In this document: positions 4,283 through 54,943 of the stretch, piece by piece
Position numbering within the stretch: position 1 is the first letter of the stretch
Layout of the letters: the number at the start of each line of letters is the position of its first letter
Origin: a virus
Lineage: Duplodnaviria > Caudoviricetes
Virus record (IMG/VR): IMGVR_UViG_3300020331_000002
Reading direction: 5' to 3' (one strand)
Length of the DNA: 64,000 nucleotides
Made by a program: the position numbers and the translations under genes
Notes under the pieces: generated by a model
What the model was told of the DNA's origin: nothing
The model's input: only the letters and a program-made list of their open reading frames with translations
Databases searched by the model: none

Positions 4283-5371
4283 ATGCGCCTGTGCTTCAGT
4301 GCTGACGAGCTTGACAATGTAAAGCCGTATAGTGCGATGTTGATGGATGACTTGAATGTTGCTGAGAAAATGATACTCGATGCACATCATGCAGGAAACC
4401 GTTCCGTAGTAATTGACTCAGGCACGCACCTCACTGAAACATCTGGTTTTGTTGAATCAGTTAACATCTTAAGTGGCGGCAAGAACTTGTCGCCTATCCC
4501 TGCTAACGTACGAGTCGAACACTCTATCGGATATGGCGCCAAGTTTAAAGTGAACGTTGATAGCCAGGGCGCTATAACTAGAGTAGATGTAGTAGAGCCT
4601 GGTTCAGGCTATTACCCTGTAATAGCTAAAGCCTACCCGCCAGTCCGTTTTACCGAGGACGAGCACACGTCAGCCGAGTTTACCGTGGTCGCTAGTGATA
4701 CCGGCGCAGTACTAAAGGTGGTGCCCACTAAAGCAGGAACCGGCTACACGGTTGGTTCCGATATCATTATAGATCACCCGACTGGTTTCGGCGCATCAGC
4801 GCAGATATCTGAGGTTGATTCTCAGGGAGGCATAGTAAATGTAAGTGTATCTGCCCCTGGTACAGGATACTCGACACGCTTACCTAGCATTGTTGTTTCC
4901 CACCCGGCAGGCAAAGGGTTTGCCGCAGGTGCCATACACACTGAAAACGGCCGTATCAAGTCGATAGCGGTAAAGAGTGGTGGCTCTGGTTACAGCCCTA
5001 TCCAGTGCCGTGTGCGCATGTCTAGCCGTACAGGCTCCGGCGCTAAGTTTAAGCCCTTGTTTTCGGCTGCGGGTGAAATTATAGGTGTTACCTTGTTGTC
5101 GGGTGGCAGCGAGTATTCAGTACACGATACAATTACCGTTACCCCGAGTGAGTTCCATACAAACCCTGCACCAGCTATTTTAGAGCCTGTTGTAAATGTT
5201 AGCACGCCAACATCTACACCTTACTGGCAAGCATACAGGAGCCCTGTGAAGTCCCATGAAAGAGACTTTGTATACAGGTTTATAAGTATTTTAGAGGCTG
5301 CAAAATTTACTGTTAATGTAGTAACCAATCCGAAAACACTCAACACACTAAAGATAATAATAAGTTGGTGA
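4283..5371 (+). CDS. Structural protein with beta-rich G(S/T)GY repeats
   Basis: PGSGY, AGTGY, PGTGY, GGSGY, GGSEY with G.GA..  linkers, typical of T4-like virion proteins. Confidence 0.65.
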   Translation: MRLCFSADELDNVKPYSAMLMDDLNVAEKMILDAHHAGNRSVVIDSGTHLTETSGFVESVNILSGGKNLSPIPANVRVEHSIGYGAKFKVNVDSQGAITRVDVVEPGSGYYPVIAKAYPPVRFTEDEHTSAEFTVVASDTGAVLKVVPTKAGTGYTVGSDIIIDHPTGFGASAQISEVDSQGGIVNVSVSAPGTGYSTRLPSIVVSHPAGKGFAAGAIHTENGRIKSIAVKSGGSGYSPIQCRVRMSSRTGSGAKFKPLFSAAGEIIGVTLLSGGSEYSVHDTITVTPSEFHTNPAPAILEPVVNVSTPTSTPYWQAYRSPVKSHERDFVYRFISILEAAKFTVNVVTNPKTLNTLKIIISW

Positions 5372-25410: not shown

Positions 25411-26451
25411 ATGCCAAATCATATTGGAATTAGTGTACTGGCTACCAAGCCGGGCCAGCCACCAACGTCCGGTGGTACTACGGTAGAAGCATTTATGTTC
25501 GATACGTTCGAAGACGCGGTGCCGTTTATAGCTAGCTATGAGCCGCCTACTAATTTCGAAGTGTTTCAGACCTGGAATCGTTTCTCTAATAGCCTTTTCT
25601 TTGAACCGGGGGATCCGCTGTCTAACAACGCGGGTGCGTTCACGTATAACTCGTCAGCTGACAGGATACAGTGCACGGCAAATACACCCCAGTATGTTGG
25701 ATTCTCCAGTCCGAGCAAATCACGCAATGTGACCATTGAAGTTACTGTCGGTTCCACGGCACAAGACGATGATGCGCTTGCTGTCATTGTTGCACACGAG
25801 CCTTACACGAATGCCGACGGCGAACCTGCAAACAGGTTCCTTGCAGTTATACGACAACCCGGCGGCTTAGCACTCGGGGGAGGATCAGGCCAGTATTACC
25901 TGGCGTGTTTGTCTTATAATGATACGGAGCAATCAGGCGGTGTGTACTTGCCGTTAGGCACACCAGTAAACTGGAACAACGGTCGTAACTCAAGCAACAA
26001 TGGCTGGGCAGCAAGTGGCAAGAGCCGTATACGAATTGAGAGAGAAGGACCAGTAATCCGAGCTTGGGCCACCCCGTTCTCCACCCAAAGCCTCGCAGCC
26101 CTATCAACAGTGGATCCTAGTGAAGATAATCCTAACAGCATTATCAACATCAACACTGGTAATTACCCAGAGCTTGCATGGGTAGGCGCTAATAAATTGG
26201 CGTTTGGTTATGGCTGTCAGTCCCAGGACGATGCATACTTCGCAGACATAGAGATAGAAGGCGGCCTGCTCAACGATACTATTTTTGTGGCATCCACGAA
26301 CAGTGTTTACAAATACAACTATGACACTGGTGAATGGGACTTAGTGGAAGGCGAAACTGTGCAGAGCCGCTTAGGTAAACGCATCGATATAGTTAACCCT
26401 AACACCGGCAAAAAGTACGTCGTTGACATAAACGGTAACCTAATAACTTAG
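25411..26451 (+). CDS. Beta-sandwich (ConA/lectin-like) virion protein
   Basis: YVGFSSP, ST.QDDDALAVIVA, RIRIEREG..IRAW and FGYGCQSQ pattern; Asn/Ser/Gly-rich; late promoter. Confidence 0.55.
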   Translation: MPNHIGISVLATKPGQPPTSGGTTVEAFMFDTFEDAVPFIASYEPPTNFEVFQTWNRFSNSLFFEPGDPLSNNAGAFTYNSSADRIQCTANTPQYVGFSSPSKSRNVTIEVTVGSTAQDDDALAVIVAHEPYTNADGEPANRFLAVIRQPGGLALGGGSGQYYLACLSYNDTEQSGGVYLPLGTPVNWNNGRNSSNNGWAASGKSRIRIEREGPVIRAWATPFSTQSLAALSTVDPSEDNPNSIININTGNYPELAWVGANKLAFGYGCQSQDDAYFADIEIEGGLLNDTIFVASTNSVYKYNYDTGEWDLVEGETVQSRLGKRIDIVNPNTGKKYVVDINGNLIT

Positions 26452-47255: not shown

Positions 47256-47573
47256 ATGTTTCAACGCTATGAGTACGAATACGTACTAGATTTCTTAGCG
47301 ACCCTGAGGCTTGAAGGACACGATGTAGAAGTGCTGAGTTCAGGGTACCTTACCAATATGATATGGATAAGTTTTTCGCTACAGTATTCTGAATCAGGCA
47401 CACTCATTTTTAGTCTTAAAAAGAACAAATACGGTTACGGGTTGTCTGTATCTGACTTTAACGAATCGTCGCTAGTGGCAGTCTCGTCCCCGCCGCCGGG
47501 CATTACTGATGATGTTTCCGGTGTTAATGAGTTGCTTGATGAGGTGAGGAAACGGTTACCCGACCCGCGTTAG
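47256..47573 (+). CDS. Hypothetical protein
   Basis: Adjacent ORF. Confidence 0.6.
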   Translation: MFQRYEYEYVLDFLATLRLEGHDVEVLSSGYLTNMIWISFSLQYSESGTLIFSLKKNKYGYGLSVSDFNESSLVAVSSPPPGITDDVSGVNELLDEVRKRLPDPR

Positions 47574-47788
47574 GCCGGAACCTCTGTTTTGAAAAGGTCG
47601 TCTTTACAGTAAGACGACTCTTTCGTCTTCGTATTCAGATAAATGCGCCAAAGCCCGTTTAAAACCATACCAGATATGACGTCACTATTAGGGTAGAGTT
47701 TGTCTACCTGTATGGTGTAAGTGTTAAATTCGAGTATATACGGCAAACGACAATACGGTGTTCCCGCAAATAAGCAAAGTTGTTTCAT
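47570..47788 (-). CDS. Small hypothetical protein (convergent)
   Basis: AAGGA RBS on the minus strand. Confidence 0.65.
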   Translation of the reverse strand: MKQLCLFAGTPYCRLPYILEFNTYTIQVDKLYPNSDVISGMVLNGLWRIYLNTKTKESSYCKDDLFKTEVPA

Positions 47789-47873: not shown

Positions 47874-47879
47874 TAAATA
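47874..47879 (+). promoter_or_regulatory. Putative late promoter TAAATA of the cassette operon
   Basis: 28 nt before ATG 47907. Confidence 0.6.
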
Positions 47880-47906
47880 TGATAAAACAACATAACGGGG
47901 CAGAGT

Positions 47907-48224
47907 ATGATTCATAATGTTCGAGTGTATACCTCGCGCGAGCTGGCCGCTGAAGAAATAGACGAGTTGATAGACGCGGTGGATTACGTTGTAGATGTAG
48001 TGCCACGCGATTTCTACGACAACGAACACAACATGCAAGTGAGCTATCTTAACGTATACGATCAAGAAGAAGGTGACTGGGTATATGAGATGTCAGTAGC
48101 GCGTATGCTACAAGACACCGACGCACAAGAAATCATCGAAATACTAAGTGAGTTCCTGGATGTAGACTTTGACTTAGACGCATCCTTTGAAGAAGATGAA
48201 TGTGAGGCGTGTAATGCCAATTAG
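47907..48224 (+). CDS. Very acidic small protein heading the cassette operon
   Basis: D/E-rich; ends EEDECEACNAN; overlaps cassette gene 1. Confidence 0.7.
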   Translation: MIHNVRVYTSRELAAEEIDELIDAVDYVVDVVPRDFYDNEHNMQVSYLNVYDQEEGDWVYEMSVARMLQDTDAQEIIEILSEFLDVDFDLDASFEEDECEACNAN

Positions 48225-49401
48225 ATTTAGAGGCCCGGTGAGGCCACGTAAATTAAAATCACCAGATCCAATTAATATACCAACAGTACGCGACAATAAA
48301 GCATCACGGGTTAGAAGCGATGTCGAGTACTTCAAAGCCAATGGCGAGATGCCGAGCGTAACTTCGAAATGGTCGTCCATGTCTGTATACTTCCAGATTC
48401 CTGGACACACAGCAAACGGCGGTGTCGACTCGGTTGATGTAAACGGCGATGTAATGGCCATAATGTCTTCGGCAACAAACACGATCTATATCTTTAAGAA
48501 AGACGTGAACGGCGAATATCAACAAACCGATACAACCACGCAATCTGGCGGTGATTATTCCGACATTTACCTTATGCCTGCTGTAGGCAAGGTTGTATAC
48601 TCTGCACCGTTGGCCAGTAGCAACGAGGGTCGTTTAGTTGCTATGGACCTTGACTTTGCAACAGGCATCCTGGACCAGGCATCTAGAAACGTTTATCCGT
48701 TAAGTACCGGGAGAGACAACTCGTACGACGGCCGTGGCATAATCGGCATTGGCAATACTATATTCAGTGGCGCGCCGGGGTATTACTTGAGCAGTGCCAG
48801 CGCACGTGGTGGCTTGTTATCGTTCCGTGACACTGCGTCTGGCGCATTAAAGCCCCTTAACGTGTCTTACTTAGGCGGTATAAATGAATCAAATAATCAC
48901 GTCTACGGTAACCGCATATATAACGAAGACGGTTTGTTCGCTAACACGCTAGCAACTGATAGTAGCCGCCTCTTAGTACTTGCGCCTGGTGCTGCGTCAT
49001 TCAATACAGCTGATAACGGTTATATATCTGTATTTGACTATGACGACACGAATCAGTCACTAACAGAGATACAGAAGATAGACAACCCGGCGATGCCGCA
49101 GTATGCAGGAACTCAAGCTTCAATGAGAGCCTTAGCCGCGCTGAATGGCAAAATACTTGCGCTGCTTAATGTCGGCGGACCAGATAACAACTACGACCCC
49201 TTACGAACGTCTTTGGTAGAGTATACATGGGACGGTAGTGCGTATATTCAATCAGGATGGTCGGATGTAGAGTTATCCCCTGATTGGACGGCTAACAGTA
49301 CAGACAGCGTAATAGCCCATATGACTATGCTAAGTGATACTGAACTATTGATACCTGGTACTGGCATATCAGGTGGCAAAATTTATAAGGTGACAAAGTA
49401 A
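48214..49401 (+). CDS. Cassette gene 1: constant N-module plus beta-propeller-like domain
   Basis: MPIRFRGPVRPRKLKSPDPIN...GEMPS; repeated beta-strand units; homologous to gene 4 over its length. Confidence 0.85.
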   Translation: MPIRFRGPVRPRKLKSPDPINIPTVRDNKASRVRSDVEYFKANGEMPSVTSKWSSMSVYFQIPGHTANGGVDSVDVNGDVMAIMSSATNTIYIFKKDVNGEYQQTDTTTQSGGDYSDIYLMPAVGKVVYSAPLASSNEGRLVAMDLDFATGILDQASRNVYPLSTGRDNSYDGRGIIGIGNTIFSGAPGYYLSSASARGGLLSFRDTASGALKPLNVSYLGGINESNNHVYGNRIYNEDGLFANTLATDSSRLLVLAPGAASFNTADNGYISVFDYDDTNQSLTEIQKIDNPAMPQYAGTQASMRALAALNGKILALLNVGGPDNNYDPLRTSLVEYTWDGSAYIQSGWSDVELSPDWTANSTDSVIAHMTMLSDTELLIPGTGISGGKIYKVTK

Positions 49402-50141
49402 TGCCAATTAGATTCAGAGGCCCGGTAAGGCCGAAAAAACTAATATCACCAGACCCAATCAATATTCCGGTTATAAGGAATGATAAAGTACCAAAGATCA
49501 AATCCGAAGTACAGTATTACAAAGAACACGGCGAGATGCCACTAACCGGCGAACGCGTTCCTGAAAGCAGACTATCACGTATTGACTGGAAAGTAGCGGG
49601 CGACAAACTATCTGTACTTGACTACCAAACAGGTATCGAGTACCTTCGTTTATCTGAATCAGTTGGACGATCAATCGATGACGTTAGTGCTAACTTCGGC
49701 ACAGGCGGAGACTTCGAAGGCTGGCGTCTAGCTACTGAAGCAGAGATTAATTCTTTTATGGACTACGTAGTCGCATCAGCCGGCACTGGTCCGGGCTTTA
49801 CTACTGACGGACAGAGCGCGAACGTCAGCACATCCTTACAAGAATGGCAGGACTTTGTTCGTATAATGGGTTATACTTACACCGTTTCGGACAGACTGCA
49901 CTCGTTTGGTATATTCTACGACGGCTCTGAAATACTTAACTCAGGTGTGCTGGGGTACGATAGTGGCGATGCGCGTTTTAGACGTAGTCACAACGATGGT
50001 GGTATTGACAATAACACTTCAAGTTCATTGGCTGCTGCGGGTGTGTGGATAGTAAACGACGGTGGGGTCAGTATCGAGTCCATTGAATATCCTGAACTCA
50101 ATAAAAACAACCCTAACTCGCCATATAACCAAGGAGGTTGA
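49401..50141 (+). CDS. Cassette gene 2: constant N-module plus DUF1566/Lcl-like domain
   Basis: DYQTGIEYLRL..S.G......FEGWRLATEAEI; ends NNPNSPYNQGG. Confidence 0.85.
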   Translation: MPIRFRGPVRPKKLISPDPINIPVIRNDKVPKIKSEVQYYKEHGEMPLTGERVPESRLSRIDWKVAGDKLSVLDYQTGIEYLRLSESVGRSIDDVSANFGTGGDFEGWRLATEAEINSFMDYVVASAGTGPGFTTDGQSANVSTSLQEWQDFVRIMGYTYTVSDRLHSFGIFYDGSEILNSGVLGYDSGDARFRRSHNDGGIDNNTSSSLAAAGVWIVNDGGVSIESIEYPELNKNNPNSPYNQGG

Positions 50142-50143
50142 TT

Positions 50144-50875
50144 ATGCCGATTAGATTTAAAGGTCCAGTAAGGCCACGTAAACTAATATCACCTGATCCG
50201 ATTAATATTCCGGTTGTTCGTGATAATAAGGCATCGCGTGTTAGGCAAGACGTCGAGTACTTCAAAGCCAACGGAGAAATGCCAAGTGTTGAGCCGACAT
50301 TAGGTCCGCCAGAAGGTCAAGCAATAGGCGACGCTGACGTATCGACGGCCGGGGATAATAAAGCATTCATCGATTACCGAACTGGTCTTGAGTGGGTTCG
50401 GCTTGCCCAAACGAATACATTCACTGACACGACTATCCAAAATGAGCTACAAGAAGGCGGCCAATTCGAAGGGTTTAGAATTGCAAATGAGGCTGAAACG
50501 GAATCATTGCTGCACACAATTACACCTAATTATTTCGACCCCGTTCATGTTTATGCAGTCGATACTCACTACATTGTGCCGGCACAATGGCACAACTGGA
50601 ACTCTATAATGGGTATAACAGGCAACAAACACGGAAGGGACTGGTCGTATGGCATATACGACACCGGTTCTGGCTTCAAACACGGCGGAACTGACGCTTG
50701 GGCTGAATCTAATAGGTTGCCTAATAGGCTGATGAAGTTCAATAAAAGTGAGGCCCTTGACTTTGATTTCATGGGCATATTTTTAGTGTCAGACGGCGGC
50801 AACACCTTGTTGAGTCAAGAGTTCCCTCACTACATGGTTAATAACCCTAACTCGCCATATAACCAAGGAACGTAA
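50144..50875 (+). CDS. Cassette gene 3: constant N-module plus DUF1566/Lcl-like domain
   Basis: DYRTGLEWVRL......FEGFRIANEAET; ends NNPNSPYNQGT. Confidence 0.85.
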   Translation: MPIRFKGPVRPRKLISPDPINIPVVRDNKASRVRQDVEYFKANGEMPSVEPTLGPPEGQAIGDADVSTAGDNKAFIDYRTGLEWVRLAQTNTFTDTTIQNELQEGGQFEGFRIANEAETESLLHTITPNYFDPVHVYAVDTHYIVPAQWHNWNSIMGITGNKHGRDWSYGIYDTGSGFKHGGTDAWAESNRLPNRLMKFNKSEALDFDFMGIFLVSDGGNTLLSQEFPHYMVNNPNSPYNQGT

Positions 50876-50877
50876 CA

Positions 50878-52032
50878 ATGCCAATTAGATTTAGAGGGCC
50901 GGTGAGGCCACGTAAATTAAAATCACCTGATCCGATTAATATGCCTGTTGTTAGGGACAACAAAGTCCCTAAAGTCAAAGCAGAGGTAGAGTATTATAAA
51001 GAACATGGCGAGATGCCTAGCATATCAGGACCTTGGTCCTCTGTTACGACTTATTTTGGTCTATCTTCGAATAGCACAGTAGACCCCATTGCTGGTTTTG
51101 ATGTGTACAATGACGATATCATTGTTATAGCAAATAGAGAAACTTCGTCGGCAGAGTCGTATAAACGCAACGGAAGTACCGGTGAGTGGGAATATGTTGA
51201 CGGCAAATATATTGCGAATATTCGCAACGGTGATATTTTAATAAACGCAGACGACAGCAAAGTGTTTATCGGCGCAACGCATGTTTCTAATTCTACTGGT
51301 ACCGTTATTGAGTGTGGTATAGATTTATCTACGGGCACATTGGCCGGGACGCATACTAGTCGCCCGTCTGGTAATTCACAAGACTATGTATACGACGGCT
51401 CCAGAATAGTGGATGTTGGTAACAACCTTATTATATCTTCTGGTCCCGGGTTTACTGCAAACTCTGCCAGAGCGGGCATTATATGGTTCAGAGACAGGAC
51501 AACTGGCGCAGTTTCGCAGATAGTCAGGAACTTCCAAAACGGGTTGACGAATAGCGGTTTCGGAACTAACAGTGGTAATCACCAACTGGGTTTAGGACAC
51601 AGGGATTATTTATGGAGCGCTTCTACCATAGTAGATGATGGTCGACTGGTCGTTGCGGCTTCGCCGTCAGGTGATAGCGATGCGTTGTTGAATAATAGCT
51701 TCGCTACCGTGTTTACTTGGGATGGCACAACAATTGCTGATATACAACAAATACAAGCACCGGGCAACGGCGAGCGCATGATAGCCGTGTTTAATTCGGA
51801 TACATCCGGGAACTTCTACATGGTTTTAGACAACGGCGACAATACTAGGGACCTTATTGAATACTCATGGAATGGTTCAAGTTATGATCAGATTAGCAGA
51901 GCTAAATGGGGCCTTGCATTTGATATGGTGAGCAGGGAAAGTCTTATTCGAACCCGCACGATGCCAGACGGCTCGCTTCTTATTTCGGCGTCAGACAGCT
52001 CTGGCGAAATAAAACGCATCACGAGGAATTAA
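50878..52032 (+). CDS. Cassette gene 4: constant N-module plus beta-propeller-like domain
   Basis: YDGSRIVDVGNNLIISSGPG..SARAGIIWFRD aligns with gene 1 YDGRGIIGIGNTIFSGAPG..SARGGLLSFRD. Confidence 0.85.
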   Translation: MPIRFRGPVRPRKLKSPDPINMPVVRDNKVPKVKAEVEYYKEHGEMPSISGPWSSVTTYFGLSSNSTVDPIAGFDVYNDDIIVIANRETSSAESYKRNGSTGEWEYVDGKYIANIRNGDILINADDSKVFIGATHVSNSTGTVIECGIDLSTGTLAGTHTSRPSGNSQDYVYDGSRIVDVGNNLIISSGPGFTANSARAGIIWFRDRTTGAVSQIVRNFQNGLTNSGFGTNSGNHQLGLGHRDYLWSASTIVDDGRLVVAASPSGDSDALLNNSFATVFTWDGTTIADIQQIQAPGNGERMIAVFNSDTSGNFYMVLDNGDNTRDLIEYSWNGSSYDQISRAKWGLAFDMVSRESLIRTRTMPDGSLLISASDSSGEIKRITRN

Positions 52033-52035
52033 TCA

Positions 52036-52803
52036 ATGCCAATTAAATTTAGTGGGCCGGTGAAACCACAAAAACTAAAATCACCAGATCCGATTAATAT
52101 GCCGGTTGTTCGCGATAACAGAGCGCCAAAGATCAAGGCCGATGTAGAATACTACAAAGAAAACGGCGAGATGCCGTCTGTATATGACGGTCCTTACATA
52201 GCGCAAACACAGAACCTGCTCGAAAATAACAAGTTTGCCTGGGCTGATAATCCTGACCAATCATCAACGACAGCGACCACAGCCGATACTTGGACGAATT
52301 CAAATGGTCTATTTCGTATTCACACATACTCTGGGCCTGATATAGAGAAACTAGGTTTGGTAGACGGCGAAGTACTGCGCTACGCACGCGGATCAAATAC
52401 ATCGTATGCACAGATATTCAAGACTTTGGATCTGGATTCGTTAGGTATTAATACTGCTTTGGTTGACGCAGGTGCGGTGACGTTGACTATGGCCGCACTT
52501 TTTGGTGAGGACTATAATGACTCGGATGCCGCAAGGTATAGACTTATACTTAGAAGTGCTGATACCACCCAGCTTGCTACATACAATACCGGATATATAA
52601 GTGTTAATCAATGGTCGTATAGAGAGGTAGCCGACTTGGATGTGCCTGTAAACACACGCTTAATTGATGTTATATTAGATTTTGACAGGAATGCAGGATC
52701 CGGCAGTAACGGTAATATCCTTGCCCCGTATTTAGAATTGAATGTCGTGAACAACGGCACTAACTTGTCTGCATACGAGGCAAACGGGTCAGTATTACTT
52801 TAA
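52036..52803 (+). CDS. Cassette gene 5: constant N-module plus galactose-binding-like jelly-roll domain
   Basis: W......VPVNTR.I.V.L.F.R..G...NG....LEL pattern. Confidence 0.8.
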   Translation: MPIKFSGPVKPQKLKSPDPINMPVVRDNRAPKIKADVEYYKENGEMPSVYDGPYIAQTQNLLENNKFAWADNPDQSSTTATTADTWTNSNGLFRIHTYSGPDIEKLGLVDGEVLRYARGSNTSYAQIFKTLDLDSLGINTALVDAGAVTLTMAALFGEDYNDSDAARYRLILRSADTTQLATYNTGYISVNQWSYREVADLDVPVNTRLIDVILDFDRNAGSGSNGNILAPYLELNVVNNGTNLSAYEANGSVLL

Positions 52804-53018
52804 GATTCAACTAGGGCAGCAATACCGCGCCAAGATTTGTATTGCTGCTCTACTTGTAAAAGAGTATCGAACTCTTTGAACCCAGGCCTACCGAAGTTAT
52901 ATGCACGAGCCGCAGCATTGTCGGTAACCATAAGCCAACGATCACCTAACTTTTCAAGTGTCATTTTGTTACCGCGCGACTCTGTGTAAAATTTGTTTTT
53001 GCTAAGCATCTGAATCAT
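52800..53018 (-). CDS. Small hypothetical protein
   Basis: AAGGT RBS; convergent on the cassette operon. Confidence 0.65.
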   Translation of the reverse strand: MIQMLSKNKFYTESRGNKMTLEKLGDRWLMVTDNAAARAYNFGRPGFKEFDTLLQVEQQYKSWRGIAALVES

Positions 53019-53074
53019 AACTATACCTTACTTGTTTAAGTTCAAGTAGAGTATAGCAATGAAACAAATTATTG

Positions 53075-53560
53075 TCAATTAAAATGTGTGATTAATGACT
53101 CCATCACTTCTTTTGCTCTATCAAGTGCGCGTTCACGTGTCATTGAAGCCACTGTATTGTCAAACTTCCTTAGTGGGTTACTCGACTCTATGGATGACTC
53201 GATTCGTTTTTCGATAACTTTTTCGACATCAGCCATCCCGCGGCATATTGCCAAGTCAACCACTGATGCAGCTTGTGAGCGAATGTTTTCCAATATACGA
53301 TTCGACAGTGTGACTTTGGGATTAATTGAATACGTGTTTTCCACTTTGGCAATTTCTTCCTGGATCACTTCTTTCGCTTTTTCGTCAATAACAGCACGCA
53401 AGCCAGACAGCGCTTCGTTTAGCGCTTCTTTCATCGCTTTGTCATACAGGCGCTTAGTCATTTCAGCGATAACTGCGTTCTGTAATTGTACGCGAACCTC
53501 TGAACCCTCAGGGAATAGTGACTCTACGGCGTTGGTATCAAGTTTAAGTTGAATGCTCAT
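53075..53560 (-). CDS. Helical/coiled-coil hypothetical protein
   Basis: AAGGA RBS before ATG 53560. Confidence 0.7.
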   Translation of the reverse strand: MSIQLKLDTNAVESLFPEGSEVRVQLQNAVIAEMTKRLYDKAMKEALNEALSGLRAVIDEKAKEVIQEEIAKVENTYSINPKVTLSNRILENIRSQAASVVDLAICRGMADVEKVIEKRIESSIESSNPLRKFDNTVASMTRERALDRAKEVMESLITHFN

Positions 53561-53562
53561 AA

Positions 53563-54267
53563 TTAATATTCCTTGTGTTCGTCCCAAAGTTCAGGCAGGT
53601 CACCACCCTCTCGCCACACGTCCTCCATCGTAATATTACGATAAGAAGCATGCGCTCGTGCTCTGCGTCTGCGTGCAGGCGTTGCTTTGTTGTTGAATTT
53701 GTCTTTACAGTTGCCTGGCCCTTTATTAGAACAAAAGCGCTTGTTAGGGTGCGCATCAGGCATTGGCTTTTTACAGCACGCACATTTAGGACCAGTGTAC
53801 TTTTCCATACCGTAACACACTAGCCCAGTACGCTTTTCATTACAGCGTGTTGATGTGCGTTGGTGTTCATGTAGTTGGTTCTTGTTTACCATTTTACGGC
53901 ATGTAGTGCAACCAACTTTGCTTTGCTTCATTCGCTTGCGCAGGTCCAGTTCAAGCTCAATCTCAGCGCTGACAAGCTCTAGCTCTTCGACTTTGGCAAG
54001 GTACTTGGTGTACTTTGGTCCTAGCGCTTCGGCTAAGCCTTTTTCGGTACCCATGCAATCGTCATCGTGCGCTTGCCCTTCGGATACACAACAATGACAG
54101 AAAGTACAGTAAGAATACATACGACCGGCATATTCAGATTCGTATGAGTCGTTGTGTTCGTGCATTTCGATAAGCTTGAGTTCAGCTTTTGAGAACCCGC
54201 TGTGCGACGATTTGGTATCGCGCTCAAGTTGCTCTTTGCGGCGTTTCATATCAGCTAATGTAGTCAT
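53563..54267 (-). CDS. Multi-Zn-finger basic protein
   Basis: CTFC, CTTC...H...C, CACC...FCS...C; Arg-rich tail; GAGGT RBS. Confidence 0.75.
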   Translation of the reverse strand: MTTLADMKRRKEQLERDTKSSHSGFSKAELKLIEMHEHNDSYESEYAGRMYSYCTFCHCCVSEGQAHDDDCMGTEKGLAEALGPKYTKYLAKVEELELVSAEIELELDLRKRMKQSKVGCTTCRKMVNKNQLHEHQRTSTRCNEKRTGLVCYGMEKYTGPKCACCKKPMPDAHPNKRFCSNKGPGNCKDKFNNKATPARRRRARAHASYRNITMEDVWREGGDLPELWDEHKEY

Positions 54268-54283
54268 GGAATACCTCGCTCGG

Positions 54284-54499
54284 TTATGCGTTTGAACGTT
54301 CAAGCTCTGTTTCGTAACGAGCACACGCTAACGTGTAAGCTTGTTTACGGAACTTGGCGTTTGCAATTTCTTCAAAACCGCTGATTTCGGCCTGTTCTTT
54401 TACCATGTAAAGTGGACTGCCGTTTTTTAACATATCAACGATGTGGATAGCGCGTTTAAGGTTTTGTGTTTTAGCTTCTGTGAATTTTATAGTTTTCAT
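54284..54499 (-). CDS. Small hypothetical protein
   Basis: Behind a minus-strand TTTACA-N16-TATACT promoter (about 54553-54580). Confidence 0.7.
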   Translation of the reverse strand: MKTIKFTEAKTQNLKRAIHIVDMLKNGSPLYMVKEQAEISGFEEIANAKFRKQAYTLACARYETELERSNA

Positions 54500-54584
54500 C
54501 TTCTAAACCTGTTTGAGTATCAACTAGACGTTATTGCCTAACTTCTGTGTGTAGTATAATACCTGAGTAGAAGATGTAAAGGAT

Positions 54585-54848
54585 TTATTTGAAGTTTTTA
54601 TTTATTGAAAAGGCGTGTTGGTAACTATCAACAAATTGTATAGATTTGGCTTCTGATACGTCGACAATTCCCATCTCTGTTAGTTGGAAAAGCCGTTCCA
54701 CATCATCGTCGTCGATCATTTCAGCATATAATACATCAGTGCCGAATTCTTTAAACAGGTTGATACTATGTACCAATAGCTTGACTGTCGGCAATTCTTT
54801 GCCGCAAAATAGCAATTCTGTTTTTATTAGTTCTGTATTAAAACACAT
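54585..54848 (-). CDS. Small hypothetical protein
   Basis: GAGGTGG RBS; TATAAATA on the minus strand at 54889-54896. Confidence 0.65.
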   Translation of the reverse strand: MCFNTELIKTELLFCGKELPTVKLLVHSINLFKEFGTDVLYAEMIDDDDVERLFQLTEMGIVDVSEAKSIQFVDSYQHAFSINKNFK

Positions 54849-54943
54849 AGTACCACCTCTGTAACATGTCTTAAGTCTATATACGTATTATTTATATGTC
54901 AATAAATTTAAAATTGAATTTTTAAAAAAGTAGAAAATAAGTC

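Follow-up and report, generated by a model that had tools for sequence, protein, structure and literature searches.

The DNA analysed here is a stretch of 64,000 nucleotides (nt), called the window in what follows, from the IMG/VR virus record IMGVR_UViG_3300020331_000002 (Duplodnaviria; Caudoviricetes), and the subject of this work is an operon of six genes found at positions 47,874 to 52,803. A promoter-like motif and a small acidic gene, referred to as the leader, head the operon and are followed by five genes (g1 to g5) whose products all begin with the same short segment, the module, before continuing into bodies of different types. The features of the locus are the following:

47874-47879, plus strand: promoter-like core TAAATA, corresponding to the final six bases of TATAAATA, the late promoter of T4; 33 nt before the leader ATG.
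47907-48224, plus strand: acidic leader gene, 105 amino acids (aa), isoelectric point (pI) 4.05; its 3' end overlaps g1 by 11 nt.
48214-49401, plus strand: g1, 395 aa; module at 48214-48354, then a predicted beta-propeller body of ~345 aa.
49401-50141, plus strand: g2, 246 aa; module at 49401-49541, then an Lcl_C/DUF1566-like body ending in NNPNSPYN.
50144-50875, plus strand: g3, 243 aa; module at 50144-50284, then an Lcl_C-like body paralogous to that of g2.
50878-52032, plus strand: g4, 384 aa; module at 50878-51018, then a predicted beta-propeller body paralogous to that of g1.
52036-52803, plus strand: g5, 255 aa; module at 52036-52176, then a jelly-roll-like body of galactose-binding-domain or carbohydrate-binding module (CBM) type.
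47596-47619, plus strand: terminator-like hairpin with a 9-bp stem (4 GC pairs), then a T-rich tail.

The module is 47-49 aa long, rich in Pro and Lys/Arg, and starts with the consensus MPI(R/K)F.GP..P.KL.SPDPI. Over the first 50 residues of g1-g5, 25 columns are invariant and the mean column identity is 82% (alignment A2), and proteins of different body types lose their similarity at about residue 49 (alignment A1). A hidden Markov model (HMM) of the module run against the six frames of the window recovers the five copies only (E-values of 1e-33 to 1e-34, the next being 0.15). Apart from the 152-nt module segment, whose copies are 72-80% identical, the operon contains no direct repeat. The genes g1 to g5 are separated by gaps of -1, +2, +2 and +3 nt in the open reading frame (ORF) listing, each is preceded by a Shine-Dalgarno sequence, and the true start of g1 and g3 is likely the ATG that opens the shared sequence, not that of the longer TTG frames. 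All gene junctions of the operon are covered at ~100% identity by contigs from four metatranscriptome runs of one marine sample, which indicate presence in an RNA library only and give neither strand, level nor timing, DNA carry-over being possible. An earlier reading of the window, made from the letters alone and referred to below as the original prediction, had described five consecutive and tightly coupled genes with a common N-terminus, preceded by TAAATA and a small, very acidic gene; ORF list, alignments and module HMM all agree on the former, and the latter two are found at 47874-47879 and 47907-48224.

In terms of charge the module is basic (net +3 to +6, pI 9.5-10.9) and the bodies are acidic (pI 4.2-4.7). 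In the AlphaFold2 model of g1, residues 1-32 are of low confidence, residues 27-43 form a helix and the remainder is all-beta. Scans with Pfam, PHROG and PADLOC and a comparison of the module profile with PDB sequences gave no match to the module, and the Pfam, PHROGs and PADLOC scans of all six operon proteins gave no usable match. The module is an undescribed protein family, in agreement with the earlier remark that it did not resemble any described one.

The source is a ~310-kb marine jumbo phage, uncultured and abundant. Genes for rIIA, rIIB, NrdA/B and a NatV-like enzyme are present in the window; its proteins have exact copies on Tara Oceans and other marine contigs of ~300-315 kb, and no near relative was found among 50,697 phage records. 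A complete IMG/VR relative, G001 (306.5 kb, direct terminal repeats, ~90% nucleotide identity to the window), has T4-type gp23 and gp20 genes, and its structural genes are also found in the Pseudomonas jumbo phage PA5oct, in the Agrobacterium phage Atu_ph07, in the Salicola phage SCTP-2 and in giant Caulobacter/Brevundimonas phages. Because of gp23, gp20 and these common structural genes, the source is, as judged from gene content, a marine jumbo phage with a T4-type head. A profile search of G001 for the sheath family PF04984 gave no match.

A profile search of 1.84 billion representative proteins found the module in 13 clusters only, all with E < 1e-17, and in 13 out of 13 it stands at residue 1, in front of bodies of 195-528 aa. 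For this reason the family is considered to be confined to one clade of ~310-kb marine T4-type jumbo phages and to be without distant members; within these limits it is found on hundreds of Tara Oceans and other contigs. A Tara scaffold of 312,990 bp carries, in addition to the window array (L005), a second array of seven module genes (L001; 263, 195, 388, 195, 528, 372 and 373 aa) located ~190 kb apart, which gives 12 paralogues. Module copies per genome vary from 5 to 12, G001 having five in total; the first array (cluster A) contains 5 or 3 genes and the second (cluster B) 7, 6 or 2. Strains with 89-94% identical flanks differ by whole cassettes. Thus g4 and g5 are missing from L007 and G001 by a clean 1.93-kb indel whose limits are the ends of g3 and g5. 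Separate arrays, ordered for instance E/D-A-F-A-A-B (body types as listed below), belong to a more divergent lineage. Such cassette turnover looks typical of host-range cassettes. The HMM search suggested along with the original prediction therefore came out as expected for a modular display system, with the module at N-termini only, at least six body types and 5 to 12 copies per genome. In the divergent lineage, eight consecutive genes of 113-135 aa and a ninth cut by the contig end are also observed (L015 141-3026, minus strand); the run diverges from the start of that lineage's module array, and the uniform size suggests a paralogous family.

The module copies display pairwise nucleotide identities of 67-80% with no near-identical tracts, and recent gene conversion between them was rejected on these values. 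Per pair of modules there are on average 13.5 synonymous and 13.8 non-synonymous codon differences, and the g1 and g3 modules differ by 23 synonymous vs 4 non-synonymous codon changes. Within paralogue pairs of the propeller and Lcl_C-like types, the module is 72-74% identical and the bodies are down to 27%. Comparison at the codon level points to purifying selection on the module as a protein, next to bodies that evolve fast: synonymous changes are as many as the non-synonymous ones or exceed them and accumulate while the peptide is kept, so that conservation acts on the peptide, in line with a segment whose binding partner does not vary. Furthermore, the nearest module crosses body types (g1 with g3; g2 with a D-type gene of the other array), and therefore plug and head appear to have been reshuffled. 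The same counts bear on the idea that it is the DNA or RNA which is conserved, the segment being a recombination handle or a translation-initiation region kept by gene conversion and the peptide being functionless. A 152-nt repeat would permit homologous recombination between cassettes, and cassette indels do occur. Against this, the copies are too unlike each other in nucleotides, the peptide is kept through a mean of 13.5 synonymous differences per pair, and it is conserved across the divergent lineage as well. The synonymous versus non-synonymous pattern largely refutes this explanation, which we regard as highly improbable.

At least six types of body follow the module:

Type A (g1, g4): beta-propeller, from AlphaFold2 and Foldseek.
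Type B (g2, g3 and others): Lcl_C/DUF1566-like, one to three domains in tandem.
Type C (g5): galactose-binding/CBM-type jelly roll, from ESM-Atlas leads only.
Type D: discoidin/CBM-like, Atlas structures with a template modelling (TM) score of 0.62-0.67.
Type E: ConA-like jelly roll, Atlas feature scores of 0.93-0.96 and TM scores up to 0.70 to viral clusters.
Type F (P0019): repeat-containing, with no fold assigned.

For g1 the AlphaFold2 model of the body has a predicted local distance difference test (pLDDT) value of 76.8 and a predicted TM score (pTM) of 0.79. In Foldseek it matches 6- and 7-bladed propellers of the PDB (paraoxonase, Drp35, G-beta) with probability 1.0 and TM scores up to 0.62, and in BFVD it matches FG-GAP or fibre-type viral proteins. 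With g1 and g4 sharing 36% identity over their full length, both bodies are beta-propellers as far as the model goes. The g2 model is poor (pLDDT 50), and neither g2 nor g3 matches Pfam at E up to 1, Lcl_C (PF07603) included. Yet PF07603 is matched by 6 of the 14 members of alignment A5, in which bacterial homologues are included (best E 4.6e-5), and the motif TGLxW...GWR(L/I)(A/P)T is visible there; because of these six matches the earlier call of g2 and g3 as DUF1566/Lcl-like is right by transitive homology. The profile of this Lcl_C-like family gave chance-level matches only against PDB sequences. As for g5, no Pfam or PHROG match was found, and its Atlas structure rows (TM 0.56-0.65 to CBM, dockerin and PEP-CTERM proteins; feature scores ≤0.86) are a lead only. 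Hence, of the A-B-B-A-C pattern originally proposed for the five bodies, the propellers of g1 and g4 stand on the model and the Lcl_C-like domains of g2 and g3 on their homologues, and the jelly roll of g5 stays at the level of ESM-Atlas leads. Every identifiable head fold is of a carbohydrate-binding type, so that glycan binding may be supposed. DUF1566 is described in PMC5758913 and PMC11661182 as a C-type-lectin-like ligand-binding domain varied by diversity-generating retroelements in phage tail fibres. In the second array, tandem Lcl_C-like doublets (372 and 373 aa) and a triplet (528 aa) are found with one module each (P0006, P0007 and P0015; L001 12360-16399), and a single-chain triplet of this kind could mimic a trimeric lectin head.

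The g3 body has bacterial homologues (P0024-P0032, E 8e-15 to 7e-5) whose N-terminus is a classical signal peptide and whose C-terminus is an anchor of PEP-CTERM type; MYXO-CTERM is the name given to one of them by its source, and two match Pfam PEP-CTERM. In alignment A5 the phage module stands exactly at the place of the signal peptide, the domain is co-linear through the terminal NNPNSP, and the anchor is missing. This alignment identifies the g2/g3 head as a domain that would have been captured from bacterial exoproteins. No Sec or Tat signal peptide was seen in the module, which has neither a hydrophobic stretch nor a twin-arginine motif and is charged and proline-rich throughout. A domain of extracytoplasmic type with no export signal could reach the outside on the virion.

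In a phage which is T4-type by its gp23 and gp20 homologues, a short N-terminal leader in front of unrelated bodies also brings to mind the capsid-targeting sequence (CTS) of T4, in which case the proteins would be loaded into the prohead and ejected into the host, the basic arm possibly binding DNA. The T4 CTS is ~10 aa long and ends in a prohead-protease site. By contrast, the module with its 47 aa is four to five times that size, and inspection of 18 modules revealed no conserved (L/I)-x-E prohead-protease site at the module end and no invariant Glu, the Glu near residue 45 being Ser in half of the copies. The exoprotein-type lectin folds of the bodies are a further difference. Loading into the prohead is therefore rather improbable in our view.

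No other hexamer is as enriched as TAAATA in the non-coding DNA that precedes the genes of the window (12 observed vs 0.89 expected). In G001 57 are observed vs 3.9 expected, exceeding even the Shine-Dalgarno hexamer. The motif is 13-15-fold enriched and mostly occupies positions -28 to -45 relative to the start codon, in many cases as CTAAATA. For the full octamer TATAAATA the window shows no enrichment, with 7 occurrences where 4.3 are expected. The position of TAAATA before the leader is kept in L007 and G001, the full TATAAATA precedes the array of the divergent lineage, and TAAATA also stands before the homologues of PA5oct 0299, 0303 and 0305. Another hexamer, TATACT, is enriched upstream of window genes (7 observed, 1.15 expected) and may represent the -10 element of host-type early promoters.

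The second array, as seen in L001 and G001, is located between a 664-aa gene with 36% identity over its full length to PA5oct EST35_0303 and a 938/949-aa gene homologous to PA5oct EST35_0305. Both EST35_0303 and EST35_0305 are annotated 'structural protein, ESI-MS/MS' (electrospray ionisation tandem mass spectrometry, MS) in the PA5oct record. Upstream in the same operon come a homologue of PA5oct 0299, itself MS-detected, and three large fibre-like genes with PHROG tail-repeat matches, whose homologues in the giant Caulobacter phages are annotated 'tail protein'. These neighbours place the second array inside a structural operon, as defined by homology. Directly upstream of that operon, G001 contains a run of at least 10 genes of 240-315 aa (226981-235178, minus strand).

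This location matters for the view that the proteins never belong to the virion and that the module is an unconventional targeting signal to the host envelope, or uses its basic arm to bind nucleic acid or a target inside the host cell; such proteins might serve in receptor masking or in superinfection exclusion. The place of the module in A5, where bacterial homologues have their signal peptide, agrees with such a role, as do the strongly basic character of the module on acidic bodies and the unannotated neighbours of the window array. On the other hand, the module contains neither the hydrophobic core nor the twin-arginine motif of an export signal, the second array is flanked by homologues of verified virion proteins in its structural operon, and TAAATA is shared with structural genes. 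Moreover, twelve paralogues, fast-evolving lectin heads and cassette turnover fit adsorption better than exclusion. A non-virion role is therefore held to be unlikely.

Our preferred reading, to which we assign a probability of roughly 0.6, is that the module acts as a common N-terminal anchor by which exchangeable lectin-like heads are docked onto the virion. The module would consist of a disordered Pro/Lys/Arg arm (about residues 1-26) and a short amphipathic helix (about residues 27-43), and this peptide would dock every protein of the family onto one conserved virion acceptor. The tail-fibre or baseplate-periphery apparatus would be the most likely site of the acceptor, the capsid being less likely. 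The C-terminal bodies would then be small lectin-type heads binding host or particle glycans, and, with a constant plug and heads in cassette form, the arrays of 5 to 12 genes could grow, shrink and reshuffle between strains, thereby tuning the adsorption range. With regard to the original prediction of a common virion tag, the N-terminal-only position, the variety of bodies, the TAAATA motif and the second array in a structural operon all speak in its favour, and virion incorporation and late timing are the parts that we infer.

Several observations weigh against the anchor reading. The presence of the proteins in the virion, the acceptor, the timing and glycan binding all belong to the inferred part of it. 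TAAATA fits the core of a T4-type late promoter, and late timing is deduced from that motif. No conserved acceptor protein was identified by the PF07880 and PHROG searches of G001: the T4 gp9/10 N-domain PF07880 has no match there at E up to 1, one gene shows a weak partial match to the N-terminus of a PA5oct gp10-like protein (E 1.5e-13, 142 aa), and PHROG scans of candidate baseplate genes gave no gp10 call, including for the gene with this partial match. The arm-and-helix structure of the module is a guess, since the model is of low confidence in this region. The heads are small and globular and are devoid of the coiled-coil or beta-helix shafts usual in trimeric fibres. In addition, a megablast of the operon and tblastn searches with the module and g4 against the 50,697 phage records returned no match, so that this collection contains no cultured relative, and scans of the genes flanking the window array gave no family match, which means that this array does not lie within a recognisable structural cluster.

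In another reading, the Pro-rich arms and helices of several paralogues would oligomerise, with copies of themselves or with each other, into a short fibre or whisker shaft of their own, docking being secondary or achieved via another part. Receptor-binding proteins (RBPs) are usually trimers, the module combines a regular proline spacing with an amphipathic helix, and the tandem double and triple Lcl_C bodies of P0006, P0007 and P0015 suggest that multivalency matters. Nevertheless, a shaft of 47 aa would be a short one, the sequence shows neither a heptad nor a collagen-type repeat, and AlphaFold gives the module low confidence and no extended structure. Such self-assembly, which would be compatible with docking, seems to us an improbable main function of the module.

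A bolder form of the anchor reading can be put forward tentatively, as a possibility that we consider well short of probable. In this form the module would be a monomeric universal plug of an undescribed kind, by which up to a dozen strain-variable lectin heads are set on a repeated acceptor, for example hair-like appendages of the tail or head, yielding a combinatorial glycan-binding coat. Such a coat, made in part of captured PEP-CTERM exoprotein domains, would be a display system different both from branched tailspikes of trimeric type and from decoration of the Hoc type.

The leader protein had been proposed as a docking adaptor for the module. It contains 30 Asp/Glu vs 4 Lys/Arg, and a search of 5.8 billion proteins returned its own cluster only, with no Pfam, PHROG or PADLOC match, so that within these databases it is an ORFan of this phage clade. 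In G001 the leader gene occurs once, beside the first array; none is found at the second array, nor ahead of the array in the single locus of the divergent lineage that covers an array start. The predicted complex of the leader with g1 residues 1-52 scored 0.00, which speaks neither for nor against binding. Being a single-copy ORFan absent from the second array and from the start of the divergent-lineage array, the leader finds no support as the adaptor. A chaperone role would be conceivable, considering the charge complementarity and the translational coupling.

Upstream, the hairpin at 47596-47619 divides the plus-strand genes from the promoter region of the operon, and a short minus-strand gene (47570-47788) also stands between the two. 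Downstream, a convergent minus-strand unit of four genes (52800-54896; 87, 253, 170 and 72 aa) has its 3' end 4 nt inside g5 and is headed by a perfect TATAAATA at 54889-54896 (minus strand). The two proteins of this unit that were scanned gave no family match, and the unit contains a sigma-70-like site close to consensus, TTGACA-17-TATACT (53078-53050). The operon had been depicted as an island among early genes. This picture finds no support in the neighbours, which have no family matches, and it is partly contradicted by the TATAAATA-headed downstream unit and by TAAATA-headed units nearby. Two candidate virion proteins are encoded elsewhere in the window, in a part otherwise metabolic or of unknown function: one of 346 aa (25411-26451) with PHROG 'tail fiber / virion structural protein' matches from residue 50 and TAAATA 31 nt upstream, and one of 362 aa (4283-5371) with Ig-like 'baseplate wedge / head closure' matches. 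Neither of them carries the module.

If the module is truly a virion plug, it would represent a compact and portable attachment tag, and the arrays a natural cassette system by which a cosmopolitan marine jumbo phage tunes its adhesion. Host range and particle adhesion in this clade would then be directly testable by head swaps, and a new handle for phage display and engineering would be available. It would also be a clear case of a phage turning a bacterial surface-protein domain into a virion adhesin via replacement of the signal peptide. Should the module instead direct export or intracellular targeting, it would represent a type of signal not described so far. In both cases a testable role is provided for a 47-aa family that Pfam and PHROGs do not contain.

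Among known systems, T4 Hoc, T5 pb10 and Ig-like decoration proteins resemble the module proteins in that dispensable small binding domains are displayed via a separate attachment segment, with a lectin- or Ig-type fold that would bind glycans of the environment or of the host. Hoc is encoded by a single gene and attaches through its C-terminal part. In the module family, by contrast, the candidate attachment segment is at the N-terminus, there are 5-12 members, and it is fibre-like and not head genes that are found beside the second array. With the bacterial Lcl_C/DUF1566 surface proteins (P0024-P0032), homology of the g2 and g3 bodies extends across the whole domain including NNPNSP, and the phage proteins differ by having the module for a signal peptide and by lacking the C-terminal anchor.

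The PA5oct cluster EST35_0299-0310 is syntenic, as seen from the homologues of 0299, 0303 and 0305 around the second array, and MS-detected kelch-like (propeller) and adhesin proteins are encoded nearby. Furthermore, the small EST35_0304 (211 aa) shares its N-terminus, with the motif ..S..G..VQ.GKKGG.., with EST35_0305 (894 aa; L011 14012-17398), which suggests an analogous shared-N-terminus arrangement at the position of the second array. PA5oct differs in having no module (HMM E > 0.8), and its small proteins are unrelated in sequence.

The closest parallel in principle is given by the branched RBP systems (K1-5/K1E/SP6, KP32, KP34, the Menlow group, PhiK64-1/RaK2; Latka et al. 2019, PMC6872550), in which short conserved N-terminal peptides dock secondary RBPs onto branching domains, a principle reported as validated in PMC13352976. 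There too a group-specific N-terminal peptide is common to tandem-encoded proteins, a constant plug is combined with interchangeable and fast-evolving distal parts that set the specificity, and proteins of this kind are numerous in some of the jumbo myoviruses related to PA5oct. Like them, the module proteins (5 in the window, 12 in the genome) are encoded in tandem with a shared N-terminus and differing distal domains. As regards a location among tail or RBP genes, the second array is flanked by the 0303 and 0305 homologues, whereas the window array has unannotated neighbours. The differences are nonetheless considerable. The module is unrelated in sequence to the docking peptides, being basic, proline-rich and 47 aa long vs 7 to a few tens of aa. 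Its heads are small, globular and lectin-type and not beta-helix depolymerases, up to 12 copies occur in two distant arrays, and no T4gp10-like branching acceptor was found in G001 with PF07880. We do not file the family as a member of the branched RBP systems, considering that its sequence is unrelated to theirs, that a gp10-like branching domain was not detected and that small lectins serve as heads. The docking principle as such is known; what stands out is the number of heads per plug, up to 12, their turnover at the strain level, the replacement of a signal peptide by a plug and the abundance of the phage in the ocean.

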